In this document: one piece after another, positions 7,036 to 44,317 of the stretch
Layout of the letters: each line of letters opens with the position of its first letter
Position numbering within the stretch: the first letter of the stretch is position 1
From: Minisyncoccota bacterium
GTDB taxonomy: Bacteria; Patescibacteriota; Minisyncoccia; Phycocordibacterales; SBAW01
NCBI GenBank assembly: GCA_035546615.1
Contig: DASZWM010000002.1
Location: 32,001-96,000 of the forward strand
Length of the DNA stretch: 64,000 nucleotides
Reading direction: 5' to 3'
Made by a program: the position numbers and the translations under genes
Notes under the pieces: model-generated
Told to the model about the DNA's origin: nothing
Database searches by the model: none
What the model saw: only the letters and a program-made list of their open reading frames with translations

Positions 7036-7195
7036 CTAGGTTACTCCTATTGAATTTTCAAGCATCTATTGCGAATAGCAGCCCAAAGGCAGCTACACGC
7101 TTCACCTACTATTATATCATACTTAGTACCACTTTGTCAAGCTACAAAAGCCTTGGAATATAAGGCCAAATCGAACGTTTTCCTACTGCTTTTTG

Positions 7196-7279
7196 TGCCG
7201 GGGGTGGGAATCGAACCCACACGAACTCGCGTTCTCAGGATTTTAAGTCCTGTATGTCTACCAATTCCATCACCCCGGC
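7196..7279 (-). tRNA. tRNA-Leu(TAA)
   Basis: Reverse complement GCCGGGGTGATGGAATTGGTAGACATACAGGACTTAAAATCCTG...GGGTTCGATTCCCACCCCCGGCA: cloverleaf with long variable arm, anticodon UAA. Confidence 0.85.
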
Positions 7280-7284
7280 GTTTC

Positions 7285-7332
7285 ATATTTTTACCACGAA
7301 TTTATGCTCTGTATATGATACAGTGTCAGCAC
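7285..7332. promoter_or_regulatory. putative divergent promoter region between two tRNA-Leu genes
   Basis: ttacca-17nt-tatgat on the plus strand; tgacac-17nt-ataaat on the minus strand; near-palindrome ctgtatatgatacag. Confidence 0.25.
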
Positions 7333-7414
7333 GCTGGGGTGGCGGAATTGGTATACGCACCTGCCTTAGGAGCAGACGGGGTAACCCATGGAGGTTCAAG
7401 TCCTCTCCCCAGCA
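7333..7414 (+). tRNA. tRNA-Leu(TAG)
   Basis: GCTGGGGTGGCGGAATTGGTATACGCACCTGCCTTAGGAGCAG...GAGGTTCAAGTCCTCTCCCCAGCA; type II variable arm, anticodon UAG. Confidence 0.85.
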
Positions 7415-7534
7415 CATTGTAAGAGATAAGTTTTTGTTGTATTTTGATTCATACGCGCCTATATCTTCCCCAGGTCGATATAGCCGTTCGTTCGGGGCGA
7501 ATGCAAAACAGGATTTTGCGCTCTTCCTCACTTC

Positions 7535-7607
7535 GCGCCTATAGCTCAGCTGGTAGAGCTGCTCCCTCTTAAGGAGAAGGTCCCAGGTTCGAATCCTGGT
7601 GGGCGCA
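7535..7607 (+). tRNA. tRNA-Lys(CTT)
   Basis: GCGCCTATAGCTCAGCTGGTAGAGCTGCTCCCTCTTAAGGAGAAGGTCCCAGGTTCGAATCCTGGTGGGCGCA. Confidence 0.85.
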
Positions 7608-7618
7608 CAGACGACAGT

Positions 7619-7642
7619 AAAATCCCGCTTGAGCGGGATTTT
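7619..7642 (+). terminator. hairpin immediately 3' of tRNA-Lys
   Basis: aaaatcccgcttgagcgggatttt. Confidence 0.4.
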
Positions 7643-7650
7643 CTGCGCTG

Positions 7651-7759
7651 TGCGGGGCGCAGCCATGTCCCGCACTGGCGGGACGGCGAGCCGGGGTCGC
7701 GAAACTATTTCGCGACGGCGAAATAGTATTTGTGACCACAAAGTGCGAGACGCTTTTTT
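7651..7759 (+). repeat. structured repeat family F1, copy 1 (3' of tRNA-Lys)
   Basis: Hairpin gtcccgc-actg-gcgggac, conserved GAGCCGGGGTCGCGAAA, hairpin actatttcgc-GACG-gcgaaatagt, conserved TATTTGTGACC, then gcgagacgc plus T-run. The second copy at 17829..17945 has different stem sequences that still pair. Confidence 0.6.
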
Positions 7760-7765
7760 GAGGCC

Positions 7766-7897
7766 AGGAGAAATCGATCAGGCGTTCAAAAATTGTCGTC
7801 ACAATTTTTGCCGCACGACCCTGCCTCGCTCCCAAGTCTGCTGACTTGGGGCCCGCTCCGGCTTGCGATTCCCGACGAGAAGCACCCCGTGCTTCTC
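7766..7897 (-). repeat. structured repeat family F2, copy A (sense on minus strand, 3' of infB-rbfA)
   Basis: Reading the minus strand: 9-bp hairpin with GGG loop; GGAATCGCAAGCCGGAGCGGGCCCC; 8-bp hairpin; GGGAGCGAGGCAGGGTCGTGCGG; AU-rich hairpin with GACG loop; tail CTGATCGATTTC complementary to the 5' GGAATCG. Confidence 0.65.
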
Positions 7898-8052
7898 TCC
7901 ATGGCCGCTTGCGTCGAAGACTCCTTAGAGGCCACGGCGGGAATCGCACCCGCGTATAAAGGATTTGCAGTCCCTTGCCTTACTACTTGGCTACGTGGCC
8001 ATTGCCTAGCGGCAGGCACGTGCCCGCACGCGTAGGTGTAATTACAATACCG

Positions 8053-8370
8053 TTACTGCGAGAGTTCGTCGAGGCGCTGCCGGTTCTTTTCGCCCATATC
8101 TATTTCGAATACGATGTCCGGCGGAAGCGCACCCTTGATGCGCGTCTTGAAGAAATCCTTCATCTCGGTGCGATTGCGATTGGCGAATGACAACGCGTTC
8201 TCCTCCGCAGTCTCAGGCAGTACGGTCATATAAATAGTCGCGTGCTTGTTGTCTTCGGTTAACATGGCGCGGGTAATGGTGATGAGCGAGCCGCGGCCCG
8301 CTTCGCGCACCATGAATTCCGCCGCGACATCGCGCAGTCCTGCCTCAAGCCGTTCGTGTCGGTTGTCCAT
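8053..8370 (-). CDS. rbfA: ribosome-binding factor A
   Basis: About 105 aa, downstream of infB in the conserved infB-rbfA order; RbfA-like sequence (SLITITRAMLTEDNKHATIYMTV). Confidence 0.7.
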   Translation of the reverse strand: MDNRHERLEAGLRDVAAEFMVREAGRGSLITITRAMLTEDNKHATIYMTVLPETAEENALSFANRNRTEMKDFFKTRIKGALPPDIVFEIDMGEKNRQRLDELSQ

Positions 8371-8381
8371 ACGTTTCTATA

Positions 8382-9902
8382 CTATTTGTATACGATCGTA
8401 AACGCCTGGAGAATATCACCGGCAGCCGGTTCGGCCTGCGTTTTTATCTGCGCGCCGAATTCGTTTCCGGCCTCTACCTTTTTAGTAGGCGCCTTCTGCG
8501 TCTGGAGGCTTACGACCGTGCCGCGCCCGAGCTCCATGTCGCGGCGCATGATCTTCACTTCCTCGCCCTGTATCAATTCGCCCTCCTCGACGCGGCCGCC
8601 GAGTATCACTTTGCCTTTGGCCGTGCTGAATACCTTGAGCACTTTGGCGGTGCCGGTGGCTTCCTCAGCACGCTCCTGCGGCACACGCTTCCGGATTTCC
8701 TCCCCAAGCCATTCGGATAATTTGTAGATGATGTCAAAGAGGCCTATCGAGACGCCAAGGCGGTCGGCCAAATCGCGCGCGACGCCTTCGGCCTTCACGT
8801 TGAAGCCGACCACAAGGCCCGGCGGCGTGCCGGAGCCCGCGAGCTTCACGTCCGATTCCGATATGGGGCCCACCGCCTTCGAGACGATGCGCACTTCGAG
8901 GCGCTCGTCTTGCGGCAATTTCTCAAGCTCGTGCATGACCGCGTCGGCGGTGCCGGCTACGTCGGTTTTGATGACGAGCGGGAGTATGATGTGCGTCTTT
9001 TCCTCCTCGCCCTCGACGGTCTGCTGCTGGGCGGCGCGCGCAGGAGGCGCTTTGACCGGCGTCACGGCCGCCTCTTCCGCCTCTTTCTTCGATTTCACCG
9101 CGCGCCACTTGGCGCCCACTGCCGGAAGTATTGAAAAGCCCACGATGCCGATGGCGCTCCCGGCCGAAGCTTCCTTGATAGGCTTGCCGAGGAAATTTTC
9201 CATGATGCGCACGGGCGCGGTCGCGGCTCCGGAGACGATATGCTCGCCGCTGTGGATAGTGCCGTTTTGCACAATAAGTGTAGCGGTATTGCCGCGGCGG
9301 TTGTCGACATGCGCTTCTATGACAAGCCCTTCGGCTGCGGCGTTCGGATCAGCAGTGATTCCTTCAAGCTCGCCGGCAAGCAAAATAAGGTCGAGCAGTT
9401 CAGGAATGCCTTCGCCGGTTTTGCCGGACACGGGGATGTAGGGGACGCTGCCGCCCAGGCCCTCGAGATATATATTGTGTTCAAGCAGAGACATCTTCGC
9501 TTTCTCGACATTGGCGCCTGGCTTGTCGACTTTCGTGAGCGCTACAACGTACGGGATCTTCGTCTCCTCGATAAGTTTCAGCGCTTCGACCGTCTGCGGT
9601 TTGACGCCTTCTTCGGCGGATACAACGAGTATCGCGACGTCGGCGACTTCGAGACCGCGCGAGCGCATCGCCTTGAACGCCTCGTGGCCCGGCGTGTCGA
9701 GGAAGGTAATGCGGTGTTCGCCGGTCGCATTTTTGTGGACGGCTTCGTAGGCCGAAAGATGCTGGGTGATGCCGCCCGCTTCGCCGGCCACGACGTTGGT
9801 TTTGCGGATATAGTCAAGAAGCGTCGACTTGCCGTGGTCGATGTGTCCTACAATAGCAACGATAGGGGGCCGCGCCCCCGCTGTGGGCTTCTGTTCAGGC
9901 AT
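8382..9902 (-). CDS. infB: translation initiation factor IF-2 (short form)
   Basis: G-domain motifs GHIDHGKST, DTPGH, NKVD; C-terminal IF-2 beta-barrel domains. Confidence 0.9.
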   Translation of the reverse strand: MPEQKPTAGARPPIVAIVGHIDHGKSTLLDYIRKTNVVAGEAGGITQHLSAYEAVHKNATGEHRITFLDTPGHEAFKAMRSRGLEVADVAILVVSAEEGVKPQTVEALKLIEETKIPYVVALTKVDKPGANVEKAKMSLLEHNIYLEGLGGSVPYIPVSGKTGEGIPELLDLILLAGELEGITADPNAAAEGLVIEAHVDNRRGNTATLIVQNGTIHSGEHIVSGAATAPVRIMENFLGKPIKEASAGSAIGIVGFSILPAVGAKWRAVKSKKEAEEAAVTPVKAPPARAAQQQTVEGEEEKTHIILPLVIKTDVAGTADAVMHELEKLPQDERLEVRIVSKAVGPISESDVKLAGSGTPPGLVVGFNVKAEGVARDLADRLGVSIGLFDIIYKLSEWLGEEIRKRVPQERAEEATGTAKVLKVFSTAKGKVILGGRVEEGELIQGEEVKIMRRDMELGRGTVVSLQTQKAPTKKVEAGNEFGAQIKTQAEPAAGDILQAFTIVYK

Positions 9903-9936
9903 ACTCAGAGGCAGTATATAGTAGATTAGACAAAGT

Positions 9937-11127
9937 ATGAAGTTATGGCAAAAAAATATCTATGCCGACGCGGCGGCGGCAACGCCGGTGTCCGGCGAGG
10001 TGCGGCGCGAGCTTGTACGCCTGCTGGGGCTTTTTGGCAACCCCGGCGGGCTCCATGCGGAAGCTAACGAGGCCAAACGCGAGCTGGATGCCGCGCGAGA
10101 GCGGACCGCGGCGGCAATCGGCGCGCATGCGGACGAAATAGTCTTCACCTCGGGCGGAACGGAAGCGAACAATCTCGCGGTTTTCGGGGCCCTGCGGCGG
10201 ATGCTGCGCGTGGGGGAGGACGTGCATGCGATAACAAGCGCGATAGAGCACTCGTCGGTGCTGGAGCCCCTGCGCGCGCTTGAAAAAGAGGGTCTGCGGC
10301 TTACGGAGCTTCCGGTCGATATGAGCGGATTCGTGTCGCACAAGGATCTGCGCGAAGCGCTGGAGGCGCGCACGGTCTTTGTTTCCATACAAATGGTCAA
10401 CAGCGAAGTGGGTACCGTGCAGGACATCCGCGAGCTTGCCAAAGAGATCCGGCACCAGCGCAAGGCGCGCGAAGGCGTAGGCGCGCCGCTGTATTTCCAT
10501 ACCGACGCCGCGCAGGCGCCGCTGTGGCTCCCTCTTAATGTCGAAAAGCTCGGCGTCGATCTGCTGACGCTGGACGCGCAAAAAATGCTTGGCCCCAAGG
10601 GCGCGGGGCTTTTGTACGTCCGCCGGGGCACCCGGCTGGAGCCGCATATATGTGGAGGGGGACAGGAGCGCGGATTGCGCAGCGGCACCGAGAACGTCGC
10701 AATGGCCGGGGCATGCGCGCTCGCGCTTTTGCGGGCGCAGGAAGCCGCCGAAGCCCGGGCAGAAAAGATATCACGCGTACAGGACTATCTATTGGAATCG
10801 ATACAGAAACTCCTTCCGGGAGTAATGCTCAACGGCCCAAAGGGGGAAGGCCGGATAGCGAACAACATCAATATTTCCCTGCCGAACCTGAACGGCGACA
10901 TGGCGGTTGTTGCCATGAGCGCGCAAGGCGTGGCCATTTCCACACGCTCGGCGTGCGATACCGACGACGAGGCCCCTTCGCATGTGCTTCAGGGGATCGG
11001 AGTCTTGCCGGAGAGGGCAAAAAATACCGTCCGCATCGCGCTTTTGCCCGACGCGACGCGACGCGACGCCCGATGCATTGCCCGGACGCTTTTTAAAGTC
11101 GCAGCGCGATACGCTAAGACGCCGTAG
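9937..11127 (+). CDS. cysteine desulfurase (class V aminotransferase, IscS/NifS family)
   Basis: HTDAAQA and LDAQKMLGPKGAGLLYV (PLP-lysine region) and the SACD C-terminal segment. Confidence 0.85.
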   Translation: MKLWQKNIYADAAAATPVSGEVRRELVRLLGLFGNPGGLHAEANEAKRELDAARERTAAAIGAHADEIVFTSGGTEANNLAVFGALRRMLRVGEDVHAITSAIEHSSVLEPLRALEKEGLRLTELPVDMSGFVSHKDLREALEARTVFVSIQMVNSEVGTVQDIRELAKEIRHQRKAREGVGAPLYFHTDAAQAPLWLPLNVEKLGVDLLTLDAQKMLGPKGAGLLYVRRGTRLEPHICGGGQERGLRSGTENVAMAGACALALLRAQEAAEARAEKISRVQDYLLESIQKLLPGVMLNGPKGEGRIANNINISLPNLNGDMAVVAMSAQGVAISTRSACDTDDEAPSHVLQGIGVLPERAKNTVRIALLPDATRRDARCIARTLFKVAARYAKTP

Positions 11128-11169
11128 CACTGGCAAATCCGCGCTTAAGTGCTATAATATCCAGTAAGT

Positions 11170-11934
11170 ATGGATCTCGAAAAGCTGACAAAACACCAAA
11201 TCGTCCTCCTAACCCTCCTGGTGTCCTTCGTCACGTCCATCGCTACCGGCATCGTTACCGTTTCCCTTATGGACCAGGCGCCGGCGGGCGTGACTCGGGT
11301 GGTGAATCAGATAGTCGAGCATACGGTAGAGAAGGTCGTGCCGGCCACGCAAAGCGCCGCCGCGATAACGACCACGGAAAAGACGGTTGTGGTGAAGGAC
11401 GACGACCTGGCCGCGCAGTCGATAGCGAAAGTGCAGAAGTCGATAGCGCGCGTGGTGCTTCCGGGCGGAAACGTTCTGGTCTCCCGCGGGATTATTATCG
11501 ATGCCAAGGGGACCGTGCTCGCCGACAAGGCGGCGCTTGCCGCGGCGAACGTTCGGAACTTCGAAGTCCTGCTGCCGGACGGGACCCGCGCTTCGGCCAA
11601 GTGGCGCGACCCGAAGGCAACCTCGACGCTCGCGACGCTGGATGTGAACGTCGGCACCTCGACCGGCTTCGCGCCGGCAACGATAGCCGACTCGAGTAAG
11701 CTTGCCCTGGGCCAATCCGTCATTCGCATAGGCGGAACGGGCGGCGACCAGGTAGGCACCGGTGTTGTTGCCTCGCTTCCCGGGGGCGCGGCGCATTCGG
11801 TGGACGCGAGCATTTCCTCGGCTACTCCCGGCTCGCTGCTTATGACTTTATTCGGCGAAGTCGTCGGCCTCTCGACCACGGCCGCGATACAAGCCGGCGG
11901 CAGCCTTTACACGACACTCTCGCTACCAAGCTAA
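11170..11934 (+). CDS. hypothetical membrane-anchored protein, possibly degenerate trypsin-like fold
   Basis: N-terminal TM; weak resemblance to HtrA-type protease cores but no GDSGG motif. Confidence 0.3.
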   Translation: MDLEKLTKHQIVLLTLLVSFVTSIATGIVTVSLMDQAPAGVTRVVNQIVEHTVEKVVPATQSAAAITTTEKTVVVKDDDLAAQSIAKVQKSIARVVLPGGNVLVSRGIIIDAKGTVLADKAALAAANVRNFEVLLPDGTRASAKWRDPKATSTLATLDVNVGTSTGFAPATIADSSKLALGQSVIRIGGTGGDQVGTGVVASLPGGAAHSVDASISSATPGSLLMTLFGEVVGLSTTAAIQAGGSLYTTLSLPS

Positions 11935-11947
11935 CTACTAAAAAACC

Positions 11948-14647
<2,700 letters not shown>

Positions 14648-14664
14648 AAAGAAAAAGCGGAGCC

Positions 14665-14695
14665 CGTCGCGCATCGAAAAATGCGCGACGGGCTT
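14665..14695. terminator. putative bidirectional terminator
   Basis: Hairpin cccgtcgcgcatcgaaaaatgcgcgacggg between clpB and the convergent GNAT gene. Confidence 0.45.
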
Positions 14696-15053
14696 ATGCG
14701 TGGTGGTATAGGAAATCATTCGTGACGTTCCCGACCCTGGAGAACCTGTTCTTTTCCCAGAATCGCTCGCTTTGGCGCTGGACTTGCACGGCGCGAATGT
14801 CCCGCAATCCGGCCTCCCAGGCTTGTTCGAGCAGTACAGCCAGCGCTTGGCTCCCGAAGCCGCGTCCATATGCCGTATGGGGTATGACGGTCATATTGGT
14901 AATGACCAGGTCGGCCCCGGTCTGCCGGTCGTTGAACACGATGCGGATGTGCGCCCGCACGGCGTTAGGGAAGGGAAAATGCAGGATGTATGCTTCTTCC
15001 GCGCGGTCGTCGGGTTCGATCTCGCAATACTCAGCCAGCTTCTTGATCAGCAT
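14694..15053 (-). CDS. GNAT family N-acetyltransferase
   Basis: Acetyl-CoA binding motif GRGFGSQAL; 119 aa. Confidence 0.7.
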   Translation of the reverse strand: MLIKKLAEYCEIEPDDRAEEAYILHFPFPNAVRAHIRIVFNDRQTGADLVITNMTVIPHTAYGRGFGSQALAVLLEQAWEAGLRDIRAVQVQRQSERFWEKNRFSRVGNVTNDFLYHHA

Positions 15054-15061
15054 GGTCCCTC

Positions 15062-15301
15062 CTAGTGTTTCGGTTGGGTTTTGGCGTAGAGCATGACCGC
15101 AACGGCATATACGGCCGTTAGGGTCGGCGCGCCCGTGGGGTACGTCTTCACCGCATGCTTGCCCTGATTGATCTCCTCAAGCGCCCGCTCGATGTATTCT
15201 CGCGGAACAGGAGTATCTCCCCGGCCTTGCGCCGTATCCTCGACTAGTTTTACCATGTCCGACATCCGCAGATTCTCCTTACTAACGCGTTCTGCCTCCA
15301 A
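15062..15301 (-). CDS. hypothetical protein (79 aa)
   Basis: ORF lying just upstream of the GNAT gene on the same strand. Confidence 0.3.
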   Translation of the reverse strand: MEAERVSKENLRMSDMVKLVEDTAQGRGDTPVPREYIERALEEINQGKHAVKTYPTGAPTLTAVYAVAVMLYAKTQPKH

Positions 15302-15416
15302 AATGCACTATACGGCACCGGAGCGGAATGGGAAAGGCGAGACAGTTTTATAGTGGATAGAATAGTGGACCAAGATAGAAAAAGCTGGCAATAAGCCAGC
15401 AGTTTCTTTTTTAGTG

Positions 15417-15553
15417 CGCCGGGGAGGAATCGGTCAGGAATAAAGTGTTCGCCGTCGCGAATACTTTTTCACGACCCTGCCTCGCTCCCGCATCTGGTGA
15501 TGCGGGGCCCGCTCCGGCTTGCGAATCCTCACGCAAGGTATCCCATACCTTGC
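15417..15553 (-). repeat. structured repeat family F2, copy B (immediately 3' of tRNA-Tyr)
   Basis: Same architecture as copies A and C: hairpin gcaaggtat-CCC-ataccttgc (plus-strand text), core GGATTCGCAAGCCGGAGCGGGCCCC...GGGAGCGAGGCAGGGTCGTG, hairpin with GACG loop, tail CCTGACCGATTCC. Confidence 0.65.
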
Positions 15554-15611
15554 TCCCGCGCAGCACATAACGCAAAAAGTCCTAGCAAGAGCTAAGACTT
15601 TTTGACGTTTG

Positions 15612-15694
15612 TGCGCCGGGGAGGATTCGAACCTCCGTAGCCCGAAGGCGACAGGTTTACAGCCTGTTGTAATTGACCACTCTACCACCGACGC
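15612..15694 (-). tRNA. tRNA-Tyr(GTA)
   Basis: Reverse complement GCGTCGGTGGTAGAGTGGTCAATTACAACAGGCTGTAAACCTGTCGCCTTCGGGCTACGGAGGTTCGAATCCTCCCCGGCGCA; long variable arm. Confidence 0.85.
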
Positions 15695-15735
15695 GTTTCA
15701 ATAGAACGTTCTTACTTTACACTGTTTGCTTTTCC

Positions 15736-15766
15736 TTGTCAGCAGGCGAAAATTGGGTGCTACAAT
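15736..15766 (+). promoter_or_regulatory. putative sigma70-like promoter (TTGTCA...TACAAT); the transcript may be leaderless
   Basis: ttgtca-19nt-tacaat ending 6 nt before the ATG at 15773. Confidence 0.3.
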
Positions 15767-15772
15767 ATTGGC

Positions 15773-16873
15773 ATGCGCAATAGGGGTGCCGTACTCATAT
15801 TTGCGGGAGGGCTGCTCTTTACCCTCTTGCCGTTTATCGCCTCGGCCGCCGGGATTGTTCCATGTGGCGATACCACGGGCCTTGCGCCAGGTACTCCTCA
15901 GTATTACGCGGCCGCAACAAGTTGTCAGGCATGCAGCGTAATTCAACTGATTCAGACCCTTATTAACTTCATGATAGGACTCTCCATTCCTATCGCGATG
16001 GCGCTCTTCGCCTGGGCCGGCGTCCTGTATTTTACAGCCGCTACCAAGGAGGAGAATATATCAAAGGCAAAGAGCATTTTCCGCAGCGTATTTGTCGGAT
16101 TCATCATAGTTCTCGGCGCATACCTTATGGTAGAGACGCTCCTGCACGCCATTCTTAATCAGGATTACTTTACCGGCTGGAACAAGATCGAATGCGTTGA
16201 TAATACCAAGCGCCCAACCCAGGGCACGCTCGGTCAACTGATAAATGAAGTAATAGGCCATCCGGAAGATTCTTTAGTTGTTGGGAAGGCTCCTGTCGCG
16301 GTAAGCGATCCGTCTACATGTACCGGCAAACTGAGCTACGACAGCTCTATCAATCAGTATTACTGCTTGAATACAGTCAGCGGCATGGTCAGTCAAACAG
16401 GCTCTGGACAGTGTGCGCCCGGCAGCATACAAGCTGCTGCTGCGGCGGGAGGATATCCCATTACACCAGCACAAGCTCAGACCTTTTCCTGCCTTGCGGC
16501 TCCGGAAAGCGGTTGCCAAGGGAATCCTGGCCAAGCCAGGACGCCGACCGGCGACCCGACAAGCGCTTCCGGCCATTTTCAGATCGTCCTTGGCCTCAAT
16601 GATCAGTGTCATAATCTGAATATTCCTGCATGCACCCAGGCTGCGCAAGCAGCCGGCTATTCGGTAAGCGGGAATCTCAATTGCTCCAGCCACTTCAGGG
16701 GAGGCGTTCCTATAGACGCAGTAGGACAGGCATGCAAGGCGGCGGCAAGCAACTTTACCTGCAATGCTTCGGCTGCGGCTTGTCTGGTAACGCAGAATCC
16801 AAGCTTTAGCGACTGGACGGCGGACCCTCGCAGCAGTTCACAGAAATCATGCGTCAATACGTATAATCATTAG
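15773..16873 (+). CDS. TrbC/VirB2-like pilin domain fused to a large Cys-rich C-terminal extracellular domain
   Basis: N-terminal 130 aa paralogous to 3305..3787 (C..C, IPIAMALFAWAG, ISKAKS, two TM helices), followed by about 230 aa with many Cys/Gly/Ala/Ser. Confidence 0.5.
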   Translation: MRNRGAVLIFAGGLLFTLLPFIASAAGIVPCGDTTGLAPGTPQYYAAATSCQACSVIQLIQTLINFMIGLSIPIAMALFAWAGVLYFTAATKEENISKAKSIFRSVFVGFIIVLGAYLMVETLLHAILNQDYFTGWNKIECVDNTKRPTQGTLGQLINEVIGHPEDSLVVGKAPVAVSDPSTCTGKLSYDSSINQYYCLNTVSGMVSQTGSGQCAPGSIQAAAAAGGYPITPAQAQTFSCLAAPESGCQGNPGQARTPTGDPTSASGHFQIVLGLNDQCHNLNIPACTQAAQAAGYSVSGNLNCSSHFRGGVPIDAVGQACKAAASNFTCNASAAACLVTQNPSFSDWTADPRSSSQKSCVNTYNH

Positions 16874-16876
16874 GAT

Positions 16877-17485
16877 ATGAAAAGCACTACTCTATATGGA
16901 CTTATAGGATTGGGGGTCATCGCAGTGCTTTTTGCGGGCATATGGATCTGGCGCACGACGTCCGCTGCGCCTGCGGAACAAATTCCCTCCAATGACGGAA
17001 CCCCGGTATCCATCGGCGGAAATTCCTCTTCTGTAAATGTTCCGGTAAACCCGTCAAATCCATCTTCCGGCAGGGATACGGAGCCGACTATCTCAATTAG
17101 CGGTCAAAACGGAAGTTCTTTCGTAACGAAAGACTTCATCCATAACGGGGAGACCGCTTCTGACGTGGTAAATCCGGGCAATTACTATCTGGCAGGCTCT
17201 ATCGGATACTGCCTTGCTGACGGCAGATGTCCGGCAGGAGCCACCACTACGGATTTTAACGTGAGCTATGACAGCAACCACAGCTCATTCAGTATATTGT
17301 TGCTGGAAGAACCGCTGGGCCAATCCCGACTCCATGCCGAAACATTCCTTGAGGAAAAGCTCGGCCTTACGGAGGCTCAATTGTGCGGCCTCAATTATTG
17401 GCTGGGCACGACCTATTGGGTAAACGAGATCTACGCCGGCAAGAACCTCGGATTCAGCTTCTGCCCGGGCGCGACCCAGCTCTAG
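16877..17485 (+). CDS. hypothetical membrane-anchored extracellular protein
   Basis: N-terminal TM and a Ser/Asn/Pro-rich linker; translationally coupled to the upstream gene. Confidence 0.4.
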   Translation: MKSTTLYGLIGLGVIAVLFAGIWIWRTTSAAPAEQIPSNDGTPVSIGGNSSSVNVPVNPSNPSSGRDTEPTISISGQNGSSFVTKDFIHNGETASDVVNPGNYYLAGSIGYCLADGRCPAGATTTDFNVSYDSNHSSFSILLLEEPLGQSRLHAETFLEEKLGLTEAQLCGLNYWLGTTYWVNEIYAGKNLGFSFCPGATQL

Positions 17486-17544
17486 GATGGTCCTGGCGCG
17501 CCTGGGTTGCGCAAAAGGCCCTTATACGGTATAGTCTTCTGGTC

Positions 17545-17703
17545 ATGTCACAAGATAGGCTTATACGGCTCGCCTGCACCAAGTGCAAGCGCATAAACTA
17601 CTGGTCTTCCAAGAATAAGAAGCTGGTGACCCGCAAGATAGAGCTCAAGAAGTGGTGCAAATGGTGCCGGGCTCAAACCGTGCACAAAGAGGCAAAAAAG
17701 TAG
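17545..17703 (+). CDS. rpmG: 50S ribosomal protein L33
   Basis: 52 aa: MSQDRLIRLACTKCKRINYWSSKNKK...LKKWCKWCRAQTVHKEAKK, the CxxC...CxxC zinc-ribbon form of L33. The track's longer ORF 17383..17703 is an upstream extension. Confidence 0.8.
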   Translation: MSQDRLIRLACTKCKRINYWSSKNKKLVTRKIELKKWCKWCRAQTVHKEAKK

Positions 17704-17718
17704 TATCCTAAGCCGTAC

Positions 17719-17789
17719 GGGCCTATAGTTTAACGGTAGAACGTCGGTCTCCAAAACCGTCGGTCGAGGTTCAATTCCTCGTGGGCCCG
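17719..17789 (+). tRNA. tRNA-Trp(CCA)
   Basis: GGGCCTATAGTTTAACGGTAGAACGTCGGTCTCCAAAACCGTCGGTCGAGGTTCAATTCCTCGTGGGCCCG; anticodon CCA, discriminator G. Confidence 0.8.
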
Positions 17790-17828
17790 CAAAAGACGCA
17801 AAATGCAACCTTCGTTGCTTTTTGTGCG

Positions 17829-17945
17829 TTGCGGGAGACGGAGCGATGCCGCGCAATGGCGCGGCCGCGAGTCGGGGTCGCGAAAATTTTTTGCGACGGC
17901 AAAAAGTTATTTGTGACCGCTCAAAAATTTTTTTGCGAGCCGCAT
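17829..17945 (+). repeat. structured repeat family F1, copy 2 (3' of tRNA-Trp; its 3' part overlaps the miaA stop region)
   Basis: Hairpin gccgcgc-aatg-gcgcggc, GAGTCGGGGTCGCGAAA, hairpin aattttttgc-GACG-gcaaaaagtt, TATTTGTGACC, gcgagccgc after a T-run. Confidence 0.6.
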
Positions 17946-18800
17946 AGCCTTCGCTTTGTTCCCGATCCAGATAATGTCCTTGTTCCGCTTGAACCAGCGC
18001 ATCTGGCGCTTGGCATAATCCCAGTTTCCCCGTTCTATTTCCGCTACAAGCGCCTCTTTGTTCAGCAAGCCTTGCAGATACTGCGCAAGAGAACGGTATT
18101 CAAGCCCCAGCTCATGCATGCGCTTGTATGACACTCCTGCCTTGTGCAAACGTTTTGCTTCCATCACCATGCCTGCTTTCATGCGCCGGATGGTGCGAAG
18201 ATGGATATTTTTCTTGAGCTTTTTCTCATCTGGCGCCAGCCCCAGCCACAGGACGTCATATTTCTGTTCAGGCTTGGGTAGAGGGCTTTTGCCGATAGCC
18301 TTGGCTATCTCTATCGCGCGTATGATACGCCGCTTGTGTCCGGGTTCAATAGTGCCAGCGCGGCGCAGGTCGAGCTTTTTAAGAATTGACAGCAGCTCTT
18401 CGGCGCTCTTTTTCTCGAGCCGCGCACGAAGTGCGGGGTTAGGCGCCACATTGGGCATAGTCATGCGGCCCAGGAGCATATCGATATACAGCCCCGTTCC
18501 ACCAACTACTATGGGGAAAGTATGATATATCATACTTTTTTCGATCACGTTTTGCGCCTTCTTTACGAAGTCGTCGACGGAGAACTGCCTTTTAGGCGAC
18601 GCGACGTTGAGCAGGTGGTGGGGGATGCCGGCCATCTCTTTTTTTGTAACTTTGCCGGTCGCAATATCGAGGCCGCGGTAGACTTGCCGCGAGTCGGCGG
18701 AGATTATCTCGCCGCCCAACTTTTGCGCAAGAAAAATACCAAGGGCGCTCTTGCCCGAAGCGGTCGGTCCGACTATAGCGATAACTTTAGGCTTTGACAT
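17907..18800 (-). CDS. miaA: tRNA dimethylallyltransferase
   Basis: P-loop GPTASGKS and the IISADSRQVYRGLDIATGK motif. Confidence 0.9.
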   Translation of the reverse strand: MSKPKVIAIVGPTASGKSALGIFLAQKLGGEIISADSRQVYRGLDIATGKVTKKEMAGIPHHLLNVASPKRQFSVDDFVKKAQNVIEKSMIYHTFPIVVGGTGLYIDMLLGRMTMPNVAPNPALRARLEKKSAEELLSILKKLDLRRAGTIEPGHKRRIIRAIEIAKAIGKSPLPKPEQKYDVLWLGLAPDEKKLKKNIHLRTIRRMKAGMVMEAKRLHKAGVSYKRMHELGLEYRSLAQYLQGLLNKEALVAEIERGNWDYAKRQMRWFKRNKDIIWIGNKAKAMRLAKKFLSGHK

Positions 18801-20390: not shown

Positions 20391-20557
20391 GCTTTTTATG
20401 GCGGGGGGAATCGGCTACCACGTAGCCAGGTACTTTTCGATCTCGATGACTCGATAACGAAAAGTCTTTCGATTCTCCCATGGAAGCAAATCAATTTGCT
20501 TCCTCCCCGGACTCCAGACAGAAAAAGAGCCGGGCGGTAAGCCTGGCCTGTTTTCTG

Positions 20558-20644
20558 TGGTGCCGGGGGGGAGAATCGAACTCCCATGCCATTGCTGGCG
20601 CGGGATTTTGAGTCCCGTGCGTCTACCAATTCCGCCACCCCGGC
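20558..20644 (-). tRNA. tRNA-Leu(CAA) with encoded CCA
   Basis: Reverse complement GCCGGGGTGGCGGAATTGGTAGACGCACGGGACTCAAAATCCCG...GGGAGTTCGATTCTCCCCCCGGCACCA. Confidence 0.85.
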
Positions 20645-38890: not shown

Positions 38891-38961
38891 TGCCCGATCG
38901 TCTAATGGTAGGACAGAGGCCTTTGAAGCCTTTAATTGGGGTTCGAATCCCTGTCGGGCAG
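38891..38961 (+). tRNA. tRNA-Gln(TTG)
   Basis: TGCCCGATCGTCTAATGGTAGGACAGAGGCCTTTGAAGCCTTTAATTGGGGTTCGAATCCCTGTCGGGCAG; U1-A72 pair as in bacterial tRNA-Gln. Confidence 0.8.
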
Positions 38962-38992
38962 CAAATGTAGCGAAGCGTAATTTGCGCCCGAA

Positions 38993-39125
38993 GGAAGCAA
39001 TGGGATTGCTTCCGGCAGGGATTCGAAAGCCGGAGCGGGACCCGCATCAGCAGATGCGGGAGCGAGGCAGGGTCGTGCGGCTAAAGTTGCGACGGCAACT
39101 TTAGAACGCCTGACCGAATCCCTAA
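38993..39125 (+). repeat. structured repeat family F2, copy C (3' of tRNA-Gln)
   Basis: ggaagcaat-GGG-attgcttcc; GGATTCGAAAGCCGGAGCGGGACCC; gcatc-AGCA-gatgc hairpin; GGGAGCGAGGCAGGGTCGTGCGGC; aaagttgc-GACG-gcaacttt; tail CCTGACCGAATCC pairs with the 5' GGATTCG. Confidence 0.65.
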
Positions 39126-39185: not shown

Positions 39186-40859
39186 ATGCCGTATTCGACT
39201 GATATGTCAGTGTATTTAGATTTGGGCGGCGCTTTAGCTGCTTTTGGCCTTTTATTTACTGTTTACCAACTTCGGCGACCAAGGTGGGAGGTAATTTTGC
39301 GAATTAGAAATAATTGGCAAAGTGATATTTTCTGGATATTAGGTTTTATAGGTTTGTTTTATGCCCTAGTTGGCGTGCTTGTATCTGAACTCCCAATTAA
39401 TTCTTTCAACTTTCCGTTTAATACCCCATTACTTTACGAGGTGGCAGCGTACCTATCGTTTGTAGCTTCACCTCTGTCATTAATATATTTTGCGACCAAT
39501 GACAAAAAGTTATTTAACGCAAAAACTGCAGAAACTTTCTACGAAGTAATCTTGCAAGAAATTTCTAAATCTAGTGATGTAAACCTAGATGCGGCATTGG
39601 AAATAGTCTTGAGAAACTTTAATGAAATTTGTGATGCAACTCTTCAAAATACAGATAAAGATTTGCGCTCATACGCAAGGTCAATTTTAGACGTTGTACT
39701 AAGTGACGAGTCTGTAGTAAAAGTGCTCACTACCAAGAGGCTTGATGCTTTGCAATATATCTTTTATTTAATAAAGGAAAAGAATATCACTCGTGCTCAT
39801 TCGGGGATAGGTATACCGAGAATTGTAAATAATCTTTTCTTTGACGAAAATTCCTTCCTCTATAAACAACTCGATAGAAAAGGGTTGGCACTTTCATCAA
39901 ATATATACACGAGCATTTTTGAATCTCCAGTTATACTCACCAACTTTGATCTGTTTGGGTACCCGACTATCGGTTATGGAATGAGTAGAGATACTGGCAA
40001 TGCTGGTATAAGAGTATTTATCAAAGCCTTATCTCTAAGCATTGAAACTTACTTTAAAACAGGGAGCGTGCCTCCGAGGCACATTAATAATGGGTTGTCT
40101 TACTTAAGCAATATATTTGGAGGGTTGTGTGCAAAAATTGCCATCAAAGAAAATAAAGGTGTTGATACTAAATCTAGTTTAGAAGATGAGTGGTGGGGCT
40201 TACATCAAATAGCCTCCTTTTTAGGACATGATTATATTTTTCTTGCCTATGAAGAAAAACTAAATCAGCAAGTTCTGGAAAACGAAAAAACTGCCCATGA
40301 GGCTCGATTTGGCTCAAATGCAACTATAAATGAGGGTATTGCAGCTGTTATCTATAAAGCTTTTGAGCAGCTTTCACAAATTAAAAAAACCACAGACATA
40401 TATCATACAGTTCTGGAGCTCTTGCATGGAATGATGAATGAGCCTACCTACAAGGAAGGTTATAGACCGCCTTTTGAAAAGAGACTCTGGCAACAAATCG
40501 GTGCAAATGTTGCTAAACGTTATTATCCTGCCGTCGTTAGAACGTATTTAACCTTTGTTGGGTTCTGTCTTGGCGCAGATGCAAACCAACGACAAGGTTG
40601 GATTGGCGAACAAGCGGAACGTATGAGACGACTTTTGTATATTGACCTTAAGCCTTTATTTGATAAGAATGAAAAAATGATAAATAAGGAATTTATGAAA
40701 GACGTTTTGCTCCCAGATTCCATGTCCTATAAAGATGGTAAATTTACTTATACCTCTGGATTCGGAGAAGGTACAACCACTGAAGTAGCACCACCCCCTG
40801 AGGGTGCGACATCAGGTTTGGAAGGAATAGATTTAGAGAGTATGCCTCACTTCGTCTAG
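39186..40859 (+). CDS. hypothetical membrane protein (AT-rich island gene 1; 557 aa)
   Basis: Three N-terminal TM helices and a large soluble domain with no recognizable family. Codon usage and GC clearly differ from the flanks. Confidence 0.5.
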   Translation: MPYSTDMSVYLDLGGALAAFGLLFTVYQLRRPRWEVILRIRNNWQSDIFWILGFIGLFYALVGVLVSELPINSFNFPFNTPLLYEVAAYLSFVASPLSLIYFATNDKKLFNAKTAETFYEVILQEISKSSDVNLDAALEIVLRNFNEICDATLQNTDKDLRSYARSILDVVLSDESVVKVLTTKRLDALQYIFYLIKEKNITRAHSGIGIPRIVNNLFFDENSFLYKQLDRKGLALSSNIYTSIFESPVILTNFDLFGYPTIGYGMSRDTGNAGIRVFIKALSLSIETYFKTGSVPPRHINNGLSYLSNIFGGLCAKIAIKENKGVDTKSSLEDEWWGLHQIASFLGHDYIFLAYEEKLNQQVLENEKTAHEARFGSNATINEGIAAVIYKAFEQLSQIKKTTDIYHTVLELLHGMMNEPTYKEGYRPPFEKRLWQQIGANVAKRYYPAVVRTYLTFVGFCLGADANQRQGWIGEQAERMRRLLYIDLKPLFDKNEKMINKEFMKDVLLPDSMSYKDGKFTYTSGFGEGTTTEVAPPPEGATSGLEGIDLESMPHFV

Positions 40860-40861
40860 AT

Positions 40862-41419
40862 ATGAATCCAAACATTTGGTTTTACACTTTTAGTACAGCA
40901 GCCCAAGTAATGGCGGCTTTGGCCGGTTTATTTGCAGTATTTGTTGTATATAAGATTCAAGATTTTAGTCAGCTTATAAAAGACGCCCGCTCTAGTCTGT
41001 CCCGGTTGATTCCATACAATTCAGCGAATACGGGCGGAGATACAATCTCTAAGCAGGAAGTATTAGATATGACTGATAGAGAATTGGTTACTACGCTTGC
41101 CGAGTTGTTAGTACTTGAGACATCTCAGAATGGAGCGTTCTTTAGCGGACATTCAGAAACTATAGATGGCACAACGATAGCTGTAAACTCGAATACCTAC
41201 GACTATTTCGCAGCCCTTGTTGATAAAAAGGAAAGAATACTAAAACGTCTGATTTTTGTCTTGGGTTTAAGTTTAGGAACTATTTGTGTTTGTCTAGTAT
41301 CATTGGTGCTAATTGACGTGTTATCAAAGTTTGAGTGGTTTATTTGGATGTGTTTGGCTTTATTTATATACACCCTTTGGACAATCGGAATGGATATTTA
41401 CAAGATAACCCTAGAGTAA
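40862..41419 (+). CDS. hypothetical membrane protein (island gene 2)
   Basis: One N-terminal and two C-terminal TM helices; starts 3 nt after gene 1. Confidence 0.45.
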   Translation: MNPNIWFYTFSTAAQVMAALAGLFAVFVVYKIQDFSQLIKDARSSLSRLIPYNSANTGGDTISKQEVLDMTDRELVTTLAELLVLETSQNGAFFSGHSETIDGTTIAVNSNTYDYFAALVDKKERILKRLIFVLGLSLGTICVCLVSLVLIDVLSKFEWFIWMCLALFIYTLWTIGMDIYKITLE

Positions 41420-41428
41420 TCTTTCTCT

Positions 41429-41752
41429 ATGAAAGGAATAATTATCGAAAATAGTCTCAAAGACAAAAGTATTATCACCGAAGCTGAAATTATTCGAACT
41501 TGGGAAGATGGAAGTTGGAAGTTGCGGGAGGTAAAAGTTTCAACAGAATGGGCTGAAAAATTTGGAGGATACTTAAATGATGGACCCTGGTATGTTCACT
41601 TTTGGGAATCCGACAGCGACGATGTACTAGTAGTATTTAAAGACAAAAGCTTCTGGATCAAACATTCGGACAAGAATACTTGGCAAGATGCTATTGCTCA
41701 TGGAAAGTCGTTACATATACCCGTGGAGCAATTAGACTTTCCTATTGATTGA
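41429..41752 (+). CDS. hypothetical soluble protein (island gene 3, 107 aa)
   Basis: ORF only; AT-rich. Confidence 0.4.
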   Translation: MKGIIIENSLKDKSIITEAEIIRTWEDGSWKLREVKVSTEWAEKFGGYLNDGPWYVHFWESDSDDVLVVFKDKSFWIKHSDKNTWQDAIAHGKSLHIPVEQLDFPID

Positions 41753-41790
41753 GATTTCGATTTCTCCCTTTTATATTATATAATCAAGAT

Positions 41791-42174
41791 ATGAAGTATT
41801 TGCTAATCACGGCTTTATTTTTGGTTGTCTTTGTGTTTGCTACTCCAGCAAAGGCCGCACCATTAACCCAATCCCAAGTAAATGCAATAATTACTATTAT
41901 GCAGTCTTTCGGTGTAGATAGTGCTACGATTTTAAATATCAAAACAACACTCTCTAATTCGACTTCCGCTAAGGTAGAATCCGTCGTCAAAACTACTTTT
42001 AAAGGAGTTCCTACCTACGCACAAGTGAAAAGAGAGTTAGCAAAATCACGCAATAAGGAGGTGACTTATATGGAGAATGGATGTGTATACTCAATAAACC
42101 ATTTAGTGAGTGAACATATTTTCAAAACACGCGATATGAGTATTCGCGATCTTGCATCTGGAGCAAGTTGTTAG
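41791..42174 (+). CDS. hypothetical secreted protein (island gene 4)
   Basis: Signal peptide MKYLLITALFLVVFVFATPAKA. The track start at 41749 would overlap gene 3. Confidence 0.4.
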   Translation: MKYLLITALFLVVFVFATPAKAAPLTQSQVNAIITIMQSFGVDSATILNIKTTLSNSTSAKVESVVKTTFKGVPTYAQVKRELAKSRNKEVTYMENGCVYSINHLVSEHIFKTRDMSIRDLASGASC

Positions 42175-42217
42175 TGCTCCTTGGTGTATAAAGTTTAAAA
42201 ATATAGTTAATCTTCTC

Positions 42218-42700
42218 TTACCCCCGTCGCGCCGCATCAATAGCGGCAACGTCGAGCTTTTTCATCGTCATCATCGCGTCAAACGCGCGTTTTGCCTCAT
42301 CGCCGCCCTTGGCAAGTGCTTCGGTCAGCGTGCGCGGCGTTATTTGCCACGATACTCCCCAGCGGTCCTTGCACCAGCCGCACTCGCTCTCCTGGCCGCC
42401 GTTTCCGACGATGGCATTCCAGTAGCGGTCCGTCTCTTCCTGATCGTCCGTCGCTATCTGGAAGGAAAACGCCTCGCTTTGCTTGAAATACGAGCCGCCG
42501 TTAATGCCCATGCAAGGAATCCCGCAGACCGTGAACTCTACCGAGAGCACGTCGCCTTTCTTGCCCGACGGGAAATCGGCAGGCGCATGGAAGACGCCCG
42601 TTACCTTGCTGTCGGGGAACGTAGCGGCATAGAAATTCGCCGCCCCTTCCGCATCCTTATCAAACCAGAGGCAAATAGTGTTTTTTGGTATCATATACAT
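42218..42700 (-). CDS. VOC superfamily protein (PhnB-like, 3-demethylubiquinone-9 3-methyltransferase domain)
   Basis: CLWFDKDAE...NGG...SFQI...DQEETDRYW...CGWCKDRWGVSWQI pattern. Confidence 0.6.
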   Translation of the reverse strand: MYMIPKNTICLWFDKDAEGAANFYAATFPDSKVTGVFHAPADFPSGKKGDVLSVEFTVCGIPCMGINGGSYFKQSEAFSFQIATDDQEETDRYWNAIVGNGGQESECGWCKDRWGVSWQITPRTLTEALAKGGDEAKRAFDAMMTMKKLDVAAIDAARRG

Positions 42701-42800
42701 ATATTTTATAGCACCTCAGGATAATCTACAAAATAAGCGGAGGCTCCGGAAAAGGCCCGACATCGTCCCAGAGGATCCATCCTTTGCTATACTGGCCACT

Positions 42801-43154
42801 ATGAAGGCTTTGATAAGACGCCTCTCACACCCGTTTCGCGGGCTTAAGTACGCCCTTATGCACGATTTCGCCGTACGCTTCGAAGTATTTGTCTTCGGGG
42901 GAATCGGCCTGCCGGCTGCGTACTTCTTTTTCGGGCCGTTTTCAGCGCGCGAAATGCTGCTGCTCATATTCTGCTGGTTTTTTGTGGTAGTGGCGGAACT
43001 GCAGAATTCGGCTATCGAAGTTGCCCTCGACAAGATTCATCCCGAACGCCATGAGGCGATTGGCCGTAGCAAAGACCTGGCTGCAGCGGCCGTGGTGTGG
43101 GCGTCGTTTTTCGGCATTATAAGTTTTATTTTTGTAGTGACCGGATTGATCTAA
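42801..43154 (+). CDS. dgkA: diacylglycerol kinase (prokaryotic DgkA family)
   Basis: ELQNSAIE...DKIHPE...GRSKDLAAAAV motifs; three TM helices. Confidence 0.6.
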   Translation: MKALIRRLSHPFRGLKYALMHDFAVRFEVFVFGGIGLPAAYFFFGPFSAREMLLLIFCWFFVVVAELQNSAIEVALDKIHPERHEAIGRSKDLAAAAVVWASFFGIISFIFVVTGLI

Positions 43155-43160
43155 AGGAGT

Positions 43161-44263: not shown

Positions 44264-44317
44264 AGATCTTGAAGCGTTGGCGGCCGCGCAAGCGGCTGCC
44301 ATTTCTTTTTTACGTAC

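Follow-up and report, generated by a model that had tools for sequence, protein, structure and literature searches.

Five copies of one uncatalogued, Patescibacteria-specific structured element of ~90 nucleotides (nt) lie in the stretch of DNA analysed here, a 64,000-nt segment of a Minisyncoccota bacterium (positions 32,001 to 96,000 of contig DASZWM010000002.1, assembly GCA_035546615.1; hereafter the window). A first-pass annotation had divided these copies into two families, F2 and a "second" one, F1, and had linked both through an AU-rich hairpin with a common apex, proposed to act as a protein-binding or termination/processing signal. Our analysis merges the two: F1 and F2 are copies of the same element, best explained as two attachment types of one non-coding, Patescibacteria-specific insertion element.

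Five of the eight tRNA genes detected in the window by ARAGORN and Rfam carry the element. The pattern GCGAG.{1,4}GGGTCG matches at exactly five places, each 3' of a tRNA and on the strand of that tRNA (tRNA-Lys and tRNA-Trp for F1; tRNA-Cys, tRNA-Tyr and tRNA-Gln for F2). A covariance model (R1), which was built from 86 copies and whose E-values are rough, likewise gave exactly five matches when run over the whole window with filters off; these scored 78-84 bits, the next best hit 14 bits, and the result is far beyond chance. Because R1 finds all five copies and nothing else above 14 bits, F1 and F2 constitute one family rather than two that share an apex. The likeness noticed between them is real, yet it comprises more than the apex motif, and one model covers both. 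The F1 cores (7652-7739 for tRNA-Lys, 17833-17920 for tRNA-Trp) sit where they had been placed, 3' of plus-strand tRNAs, and align at 81% identity. Both contain the two conserved blocks exactly as described: GGGGTCGCGAAA is present without mismatch in these copies only, and TATTTGTGACC has two occurrences in the window compared with 0.53 expected. Pairing in both hairpins is maintained despite sequence change between the two copies, and none of 200 shuffles folds as well as either (z -4.7 for the Lys and -4.0 for the Trp copy); across all five copies, z ranges from -4.0 to -6.8. The bare 8-mer of the apex, GCGACGGC, was on the other hand found 10 times against 8.4 expected, i.e. without enrichment, with four of the 10 inside elements, and the Cys copy has GTGACGAC in its place. 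The 8-mer is specific only within its hairpin context.

The constant part of the element is a three-way junction of ~90 nt, with the arms P2/Pa and P3/Pb and a closing helix P1. From 5' to 3', its consensus reads P1 5' strand, AAA, G-N-C (P2), GGA, GCG-AU-G, a variable Pa hairpin and C-CGC-GA, followed by G-N'-C, R-G, GGUCGYG (P3), an AU-rich Pb hairpin, YGUGAC and the P1 3' strand. The P2/Pa arm has a GGA/GA internal loop and an AU bulge, and the P3/Pb arm an invariant G.U pair and a GACG-capped tip, often built of tandem G.A pairs and GC-GACG-GC. For consensus and covariation counts, 86 distinct copies were aligned in 98 columns (alignment A3), some of which are fixed by the search pattern. 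Here, 90.6% of cells are paired compared with 70.5% in shuffles, and 614 cells show double changes compared with 174; the covariation score is 0.50, against 0.16 in shuffles (0/500 reach it) and 0.07-0.13 in slid controls. The N/N' pair alone is C-G 33 times, G-C 33 times, A-U 13 times and U-A once. Because the search pattern had fixed some columns, the fold count was repeated on an independent set of 38 matches, from loci picked by homology of the translation factor IF2 (relatives with 50-78% identity), whose alignment was fitted to the model and thereby favours structure somewhat: 92.4% of cells are paired compared with 64.2%, and compensatory changes occur in 33 of the 34 pairs, P3 included. 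The hairpin covariation first noticed between two copies is borne out by the 86-copy alignment and the IF2-selected set. The P3 G.U pair is retained in 86/86 and 33/36 copies of the two sets. Overall, G.U pairs outnumber A.C oppositions by 172 to 18, and so only the tRNA-sense strand folds. Besides, three columns of A3 (49, 56 and 91; 7692, 7699 and 7733 in a window example) change jointly, being G/C/G in 65 copies, A/U/C in 17, A/U/A in 2 and otherwise in 2, and in the second state a Watson-Crick pair is replaced by a U.C opposition. A base triple could lie behind this, or a marker linked to one subfamily.

A scan with the core pattern over one genome per species gave at least 119 loci. Patescibacteria account for nearly all of these pattern-based finds, a few being chance matches in high-GC genomes, which agrees with the lineage specificity proposed in the first place; the taxa among the matches listed are Saccharibacteria, Kaiser-, Nomura-, Adler- and Yonathbacteria, Paceibacterota and Minisyncoccia. 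Best protein identities of the window are about 69%, to metagenome-assembled genomes labelled Kaiserbacteria, Patescibacteria group, Saccharibacteria or Minisyncoccia. Copies from other genomes may have a different apex (GAAG, GUAG, GUCG or GACA) on the same fold. Against Rfam 15, whose families include twister, pistol and hatchet ribozymes, group I/II introns and tRNA-like RNAs, only tRNAs passed the gathering threshold in the whole window, and a search of 7100-8100 at E<=10 returned nothing meaningful over either element type, only tRNAs and noise. Comparison by eye led us to reject type I hammerhead, hepatitis delta virus (HDV)-like, hairpin-ribozyme loop A/B, group II domain 5 and k-turn assignments, whose junction lengths and strand positions do not fit. 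No description of the element was found in open-access papers and preprints, the literature covered, the nearest being group I introns of Patescibacteria tRNAs (PMC13011429).

What separates F1 from F2 is solely the position at which the sequence behind the core re-starts. In oriented sequences, the bases directly after GUGAC repeat the upstream tRNA, either from C56 of the T-loop (34/67 of the tRNA-linked copies listed) or from C72, the last acceptor pair (about 21/67). We refer to copies that re-start at C56 as type T, corresponding to F2, and to those that re-start at C72 or the discriminator as type A, corresponding to F1. Repeats of at least 10 nt occur in 27% of the 67 tRNA-linked copies compared with 1% when tRNAs of other isotypes are substituted, and long ones sometimes include the trailer (19 nt in loci L005 and L076, 28 nt in L070, about 35 nt in L066). 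Each unit involves three related segments, namely the intact gene end (X1), its re-copied piece downstream of the core (X2) and a complement 5' of the core (X'). X' and the repeat pair as P1, X' being the complement of the repeat and not a copy of the T-arm 5' half, as in L066, where X' GTGGGAGTTG stands opposite the repeat CAACTCCCAC. An interpretation of P1 as a T-arm split at the palindrome TTCGAA with duplication of CG was rejected, since in tRNA-Cys (T-loop TGCGATT) and L066 (T-loop TGCAACT) the 5' strand complements the 3' part and does not copy the 5' half of the T-arm. Repeats of the diversity-generating retroelement type were rejected as well, the differences between copies not being adenine-specific.

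Between X1 and X' lie the trailer and usually a terminator-like hairpin; the distance from tRNA to core motif is 59-128 nt, and whole units measure 100-250 nt without an open reading frame (ORF). Type-T units usually add a mimic of the acceptor 5' strand, the dinucleotide AG and a hairpin (H0), and resemble the top half of a tRNA in which the core replaces the T-loop. X' of type-A units is complementary to the final acceptor bases plus the trailer and therefore extends the terminator-like hairpin between tRNA and core. Among orthologous tRNA-Lys loci, X and X' shift in step (TAAAG/CTTTA, AAAAG/CTTTT, AGACG/CG.CT). In 31 type-T copies, the repeat is 93% identical to the tRNA over its first 8 nt, the P1 part, and 56% identical over the next 10 nt, and this outer part is bimodal, with either 10/10 or <=4/10 matches. 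As the outer repeat has decayed with P1 retained, the folded state is under selection in place. X' pairs better with X1 than with X2 in 13 cases and worse in one, with 17 ties. This would be expected if X' and X1 travel together as one unit, and pairing of X' with the tRNA itself also fits.

The element is not confined to tRNA genes. The model matched 125 times in 96 loci, with a same-strand tRNA <=450 nt upstream in 85 cases and about 15 matches at locus edges. Three matches lie downstream of transfer-messenger RNA (tmRNA) genes, which Rfam confirmed, and among protein genes topA (4 loci), rpsI (2 loci) and one further gene act as hosts at their 3' ends. A T-loop-like GGT(T)CGA motif marks each protein-gene junction (topA GGCA|CGAAAAC, rpsI TGGT|CGAAGCG, L075 GGGGT|CGAGTC). 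Two topA loci (L032 and L115) contain a stretch of 65-67 nt of coding sequence twice: the upstream copy forms the end of the functional gene, with hairpin, X' and core behind it, and the downstream copy has kept its frame and stop codon, in L032 with a terminator-like hairpin after the stop. The two copies differ in 8-9 synonymous and 5 non-synonymous codons, the downstream copy of L115 has lost one zinc-ribbon cysteine, and that of L074 has decayed to about 17 recognisable bases. The pattern at topA resembles that of integrative elements which carry a replacement gene end. The topA gene of the window is not usable as an empty site because it lacks the zinc-ribbon tail.

Occupancy varies between relatives. 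A cluster of infB with the genes for tRNA-Cys, -Leu(UAA), -Lys(CUU) and -Leu(UAG) is common to the IF2-found relatives. In three of them (L132, L136, L149) the four tRNAs are spaced 3-40 nt apart without any element, and in the closest relative, L121, the Leu-Lys-Leu genes are tightly packed and empty. The window and many other relatives have main-class cores after Cys, Leu or Lys, and some have other cores in the same scaffold. Across 66 non-redundant IF2-selected loci, 28/165 tRNAs (17%) are followed by a main-class core, that is 9/52 for Cys, 6/43 for Leu-UAA, 12/36 for Lys and 1/31 for Leu-UAG. Tandem arrangements exist, too: L140 has two identical 140-nt monomers, each consisting of X, H0, the P1 5' strand and the core, and then a third X; L130 has one unit and the stump of a second; and three consecutive cores are present in L057 and L116. 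The Cys core of the window is 91% identical to the orthologous Cys core of L130, though IF2 is only 67% identical, and 84% identical to the window's own Gln core. As a separate observation, the tRNA genes of the infB cluster are individually inverted or re-ordered among relatives (L121-L165), with spacers from 3 nt to >2 kb, and in L121 a protein gene is inserted directly after tRNA-Cys.

Taken together, the two fixed junction positions, the duplicated gene ends (trailers and coding sequence included), the tRNA, tmRNA and T-arm-like sites, the variable occupancy and the tandem units lead us to read the element as a non-autonomous, site-specific insertion element with the folded core and P1 as its cis-acting site, a reading to which we assign a probability of roughly 0.45. 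As with integrative elements, a direct repeat of the 3' part of the gene (T-loop or 3' end) flanks the insert and the gene is intact. The mobile unit would comprise X1, spacer, X' and core, with no gene of its own. Its ends would meet at GUGAC|C, and the free form could fold into the same three-way junction, with P1 formed by X' and X1. In the single-stranded fold, P1 would reproduce the duplex target beside the conserved core, and a recombinase or nuclease-ligase supplied in trans might exchange strands at the P3/P1 junction (GUGAC|C) with T-arm-like sites (GGTT|CGAA) or tRNA 3' ends as targets. As the unit carries X1, the interrupted gene would be regenerated and its original end would remain as X2; later recombination between X1 and X2 could yield tandem multimers or precise loss. 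Beyond the common fold, the two junction positions, the duplications, the host range, the presence/absence pattern and the tandem arrays, which are observed, an excised form, an enzyme and the nature of the active molecule, be it DNA or RNA, are what we infer.

Several points weigh against this reading. Recombinases, transposases and reverse transcriptases were found neither within nor beside any unit, no integrase domain, as an element with an integrase of its own would bring along, was found among the window ORFs scanned, and neither an excised form nor an autonomous relative was seen. A scan of viral contigs with the core pattern gave a single chance match, in high-GC coding sequence without a tRNA. 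The core also has features of a functional RNA, namely the invariant G.U pair, the tandem G.A pairs and the three-position covariation, and retention of P1 after decay of X2 fits a host function as well as one at the level of the element. Besides, the insertion model leaves unaccounted for how X' comes to match each new target, and the type-A repeats measure only about 5 nt.

Some of these features would suit a structured RNA that benefits the host, located in the 3' trailer of the tRNA, transcribed by read-through and acting in cis to protect or process 3' ends. It could imitate the top half of a tRNA and be acted on by RNase P, RNase Z or the CCA-adding enzyme, or be the ligand of a conserved Patescibacteria protein. 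The element is always on the strand of its host gene, its fold and sequence are strongly conserved across Patescibacteria classes, P1 survives decay of the outer repeat, X' and the tRNA 3' end change together between orthologues so that they still pair, and the type-T scaffold is like an acceptor/T-arm minihelix. However, a terminator-like hairpin lies between tRNA and element, X' pairing would compete with the acceptor stem of the tRNA, only 17% of orthologous tRNAs in the unbiased set are occupied and, in the same cluster of the nearest relative, none is. Neither the duplicated gene ends, among them non-functional trailers and topA replacement ends, nor the identical tandem monomers find an explanation here, and we regard such a role as unlikely, if well worth bearing in mind. 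The first-pass proposal of a lineage-specific signal, in which the GCGACGGC-capped AU-rich hairpin serves termination or processing, draws on the location 3' of tRNAs and on the same apex across copies (Cys copy GTGACGAC), and is very improbable by now. An intrinsic terminator consists of a G+C-rich hairpin and a T/U run, whereas the GACG-capped hairpin is AU-rich and sits inside a larger fold as one of its arms: behind it comes no T-run but YGUGACC, the pairing partner of GGGUCGYG. The terminator-like hairpin is a different feature, upstream of the core, the apex changes in other genomes with the fold kept, and most orthologous tRNAs, including those of close relatives, do without the element. 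Also, its presence behind tmRNA and protein genes with duplicated ends would be left unexplained. A common protein-binding role for the conserved core, as suggested alongside, is possible.

RNA catalysis offers a different route to mobility. The element might be a new ribozyme with a built-in guide, X', that docks the target X beside the core, cleaves and ligates at GUGAC|C and uses X1 and X2 as alternative substrates, as in a cycle of splicing and reverse splicing, with genomic copies arising through reverse transcription or recombination. The repeat junction coincides exactly with the three-way junction and adjoins the helix with the invariant G.U pair, X' is guide-like in being able to pair with X1 or X2, the unit-length tandem repeats are like rolling-circle multimers, and folding is strand-specific. 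Yet even at E<=10 no ribozyme or intron family of Rfam matches, the junction strands are, by eye, unlike the cores of hammerhead, HDV or hairpin ribozymes, the units have no linked reverse transcriptase, the same scaffold also houses unrelated cores, and we found no tRNA that becomes complete only once the unit is removed; this leaves an RNA-catalysed element rather improbable. An obligate or self-splicing intron was rejected, the upstream tRNA being intact in all tRNA-linked copies; when, for 12 copies without a detected tRNA, the upstream sequence was joined to X2 with X1 to core removed, no tRNA appeared. Taken more broadly, the proposition that core and X' constitute a new catalytic or guide RNA, either a small three-way-junction ribozyme or the RNA part of a recombinase of unknown kind, which uses the target complement to insert into the T-loop or 3' end of tRNAs, into tmRNA and into T-arm-like sites, is doubtful but has some plausibility, and would make the element a mobile RNA, tRNA-shaped and programmable, in bacteria with the smallest genomes. 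Finally, the copies could be scars of larger integrated elements such as prophages or islands, i.e. attL/attR remnants after deletion of the interior; the conserved core would then be the att-proximal arm in a widespread family of integrative elements from Patescibacteria. The repeats do start at the classical T-loop and 3'-end positions of tRNA/tmRNA genes, replacement gene ends occur, and the Gln unit is followed by a low-GC block whose ORFs have no Pfam match. We nonetheless consider scars quite improbable: deletion end points should vary, whereas the remnants are uniformly small (59-128 nt from tRNA to core motif); covariation on one strand is not expected of a protein-binding duplex arm; the identical 140-nt tandem monomers do not fit; no integrase was seen beside any copy; and the one scan of viral contigs produced none with the core.

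Within the window, the units are laid out as follows. The Lys unit starts with the 3' end of tRNA-Lys(CUU) (7535-7608, plus strand; ARAGORN and Rfam), which together with the trailer forms segment X, CGCACAGACGACAG (about 7604-7617). As read from the sequence, the spacer between tRNA and core is a terminator-like hairpin, AAAATCCCGC-TTGA-GCGGGATTTT (7619-7642), at the tip of the long X/X' hairpin, and this spacer is conserved in the orthologous locus L123; then comes X', CTGCGCTGTGCG (7643-7654), the complement of the tRNA 3' end and trailer, whose 3' part is the 5' strand of P1. The unit starts given in the first-pass annotation (7651 and 17829) hence omit the terminator-like hairpin and the tRNA-end complement, which precede the core. 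The type-A core (7652-7739, plus strand) scores 79.8 bits with R1 (fold z -4.74) and has the arms GCAGCC-AU-G UCCCGC ACUG GCGGGA C GGC GA G (P2/Pa) and GGUCGCG ... GCGACGGC ... UGUGACC (P3/Pb). The short repeat of the tRNA end behind it, CACAAAG (C72-A73-CA..; 7737-7743), is the 3' strand of P1 and starts, by direct-repeat analysis, at C72. A small hairpin with flanking T/A runs, GCGAGACGC (7745-7759), separates this unit from the convergent Cys unit, is common to both and lies outside the element. It had been taken for the end of F1 ("GCGAG-CGC plus a T-run"), which is absent from the family consensus, and in the Trp copy the corresponding stretch falls inside the miaA coding region.

As described originally, the two convergent copies are only ~30 nt apart, with core ends at 7739 (plus) and 7774 (minus). 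On the minus strand, tRNA-Cys(GCA) (7928-8000; ARAGORN and Rfam) is followed by a scaffold (7866-7897) of H0, GAGAAGCAC-GGG-GUGCUUCUC (7897-7877), and the P1 5' strand, GUCGGGAAUCG (7876-7866), then by a type-T core (7774-7866; 78.1 bits) and by a decayed second copy of the tRNA 3' part from C56 of the T-loop, CGATTTCTCCTGGCCTC (7760-7776), which supplies the P1 3' strand. The Tyr unit, also on the minus strand, is similarly organised: behind tRNA-Tyr (15611-15694) come a terminator-like hairpin (about 15604-15574), the acceptor-5'-strand mimic (about 15565-15552), H0 (15553-15533), the P1 5' strand (15530-15522), a type-T core (15430-15522; 82.5 bits) and a second copy of the tRNA 3' part from C56 to the 3' end, CGATTCCTCCCCGGCGCAC (15414-15432), identical to the tRNA at 18/19 positions. 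In the Gln unit (plus strand; tRNA-Gln at 38891-38962) the scaffold (38985-39025; fold -74 kcal/mol, z -6.8) has the acceptor-5'-strand mimic GCCCGA (38985-38990), H0 (38993-39013) and the P1 5' strand GGGAUUCG (39018-39025), and the type-T core (39025-39117; 84.3 bits) is followed by a re-start of tRNA-Gln at C56, CGAATCCCT (39115-39123), the P1 3' strand. The second type-A copy belongs to tRNA-Trp(CCA) (17719-17790, plus strand; ARAGORN and Rfam). Its core (17833-17920, plus strand; 81.0 bits) lies downstream of the sole terminator-like site that a terminator scan found in this unit, GCAACCTTCGTTGC followed by TTTTT (17805-17818, plus strand). The convergent miaA gene (17907-18800, minus strand; stop codon 17907-17909) terminates inside the last helix of this element; its translation ends in ..GHK* on GGTCACAAATAA, the last codons and the stop being the reverse complement of UUAUUUGUGACC, the P3 3' strand (17907-17920).

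Two further observations concern the surroundings of the units. Just downstream of tRNA-Leu(UAA), at 7111-7140 (minus strand), there is a perfect match to a sigma-70-type promoter (TTGACA, 18 nt, TATAAT, with TG), and in L121 and L136 this promoter region is likewise present behind the cluster's last tRNA. A block of low GC content (0.46-0.52 compared with about 0.58-0.60 in the flanks) extends from 39186 to 44824, beginning ~60 nt after the tRNA-Gln element. Its seven ORFs have no Pfam match at E<=0.01 and include no integrase, and the block may be an island.

The same scaffold also hosts inserts other than the main-class core. On the minus strand of the window (20405-20515), 3' of tRNA-Leu(CAA) (20558-20644), a unit with H0, the P1 5' strand GGGAGAAUCG and AAAG ends in a decayed tRNA repeat from C56, CGATTCCCCCC. 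It encloses a different core of two hairpins (ACUUUUCG..CGAAAAGU, then GGCUAC-GUG-GUAGCC) that scores only 7.6 bits with R1, and "ACUUUUC" cores like this one follow tRNA-Phe and tRNA-Glu in L022. At least three further core classes or enlarged variants (for example "CCCGAUUGAG...") were seen at the same position, in the order P1, AAG/AAAG, core and a tRNA repeat starting at the T-loop, in L085 (tRNA-Arg), L165, L199, L167/L168 (tRNA-Lys), L100 (tRNA-His), L015 and L092 (tRNA-Arg-CCG). As several core classes share one position, the scaffold seems to be a general platform with interchangeable inserts. At tRNA-Lys of L139 (6278-6351) and downstream of it, a long perfect palindrome composed of the 3' acceptor bases of the tRNA, an A-run, a GC hairpin, a T-run and the tRNA-end complement has no core behind it, and represents either a relic after core loss or an X' that exists without a core. 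Other kinds of tRNA-end duplication are found in the same phylum: 3' of tRNA-Lys(CUU) in L028 there are tandem repeats of ~45 nt, each with a T-loop/T-stem remnant CCTCGAATCCAACC, and 3' of tRNA-Ala(UGC) in L047 two repeats of ~70 nt precede a second, partial tRNA-Ala that starts near the anticodon arm.

Patescibacteria genomes are very small, yet many of their tRNA genes carry the element. If it is mobile, it would be of a new kind, gene-less, restoring the gene that it interrupts and carrying a folded site together with the complement of its target, and it could explain the scrambled order and orientation of tRNA genes among close relatives. A core that is catalytic, or that guides a recombinase, would represent a new class of ribozyme or guide RNA with built-in, changeable target recognition. 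Either way, this is a large, strongly covarying structured element that is absent from Rfam. In practical terms, when such genomes are annotated, neither the 3' flanks of tRNAs nor partial tRNA copies nor duplicated gene ends should be taken for assembly errors or pseudogenes.

Regarding known systems, group I introns in Patescibacteria tRNA genes (PMC13011429) share with the element the phylum, the tRNA hosts and a guide-like exon complement beside a structured core. However, the element lies behind an intact tRNA and not in an anticodon loop, no tRNA depends on its removal, and its core is about 90 nt long, without a group I match or a terminal G. Miniature inverted-repeat transposable elements and elements of the REP/PATE type are likewise short, non-coding, multi-copy, intergenic and hairpin-forming. 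Here, in contrast, there are no terminal inverted repeats of the element's own, the P1 3' arm being host sequence, the duplication at the flank is long, varies in length (5-67 nt) and restores the end of a gene, the sites are strictly gene 3' ends, and the copies are not near-identical but diverge through compensatory change. HDV-like "theta" and other self-cleaving ribozymes occur 3' of tRNAs and, like the element, are same-strand structured RNAs directly 3' of a tRNA that might define or process 3' ends. Unlike "theta" ribozymes, the element has no Rfam match, a simple three-way junction instead of a nested double pseudoknot, a spacer of 60-120 nt with a terminator-like hairpin, a target duplication and protein-gene hosts.

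Integrases of the tyrosine type reportedly act at T-loop and 3'-end positions in tRNA and tmRNA genes. The integrative elements that target such genes, and those of the phage 21/e14-icd type, show the same direct repeat of the gene 3' part, from T-loop or extreme 3' end; also shared are the regeneration of the gene by the element, the use of tmRNA and protein-gene 3' ends, a replacement coding end that differs mainly at synonymous sites, and tandem insertions. The units described here differ from these systems in their 100-250 nt without integrase or other ORF, in a single-strand fold against the junction, in carrying their own target complement X' and in using nearly every tRNA isotype. Folded single-strand recombination sites, in which the stem of one strand reproduces the duplex target, are known from integron attC and from attP(+) of CTXphi. 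The element fits their geometry of X', structured spacer and X, and is like them in structure conserved over sequence, strand-specific folding and, after integration, the origin of the 3' arm of the stem from the target; the excess of G.U over A.C (172 compared with 18), with X' complementary to X, suits folding of DNA or RNA alike. On the other hand, its consensus contains neither R''/R' boxes (RYYYAAC/GTTRRRY) nor dif-like XerC/D arms, its spacer is a conserved three-way junction with RNA-like motifs and not a variable loop, and its targets are T-arm-like. The nearest known geometry is the folded att site of integron cassettes and CTXphi, and the nearest site choice that of the tRNA/tmRNA integrases.

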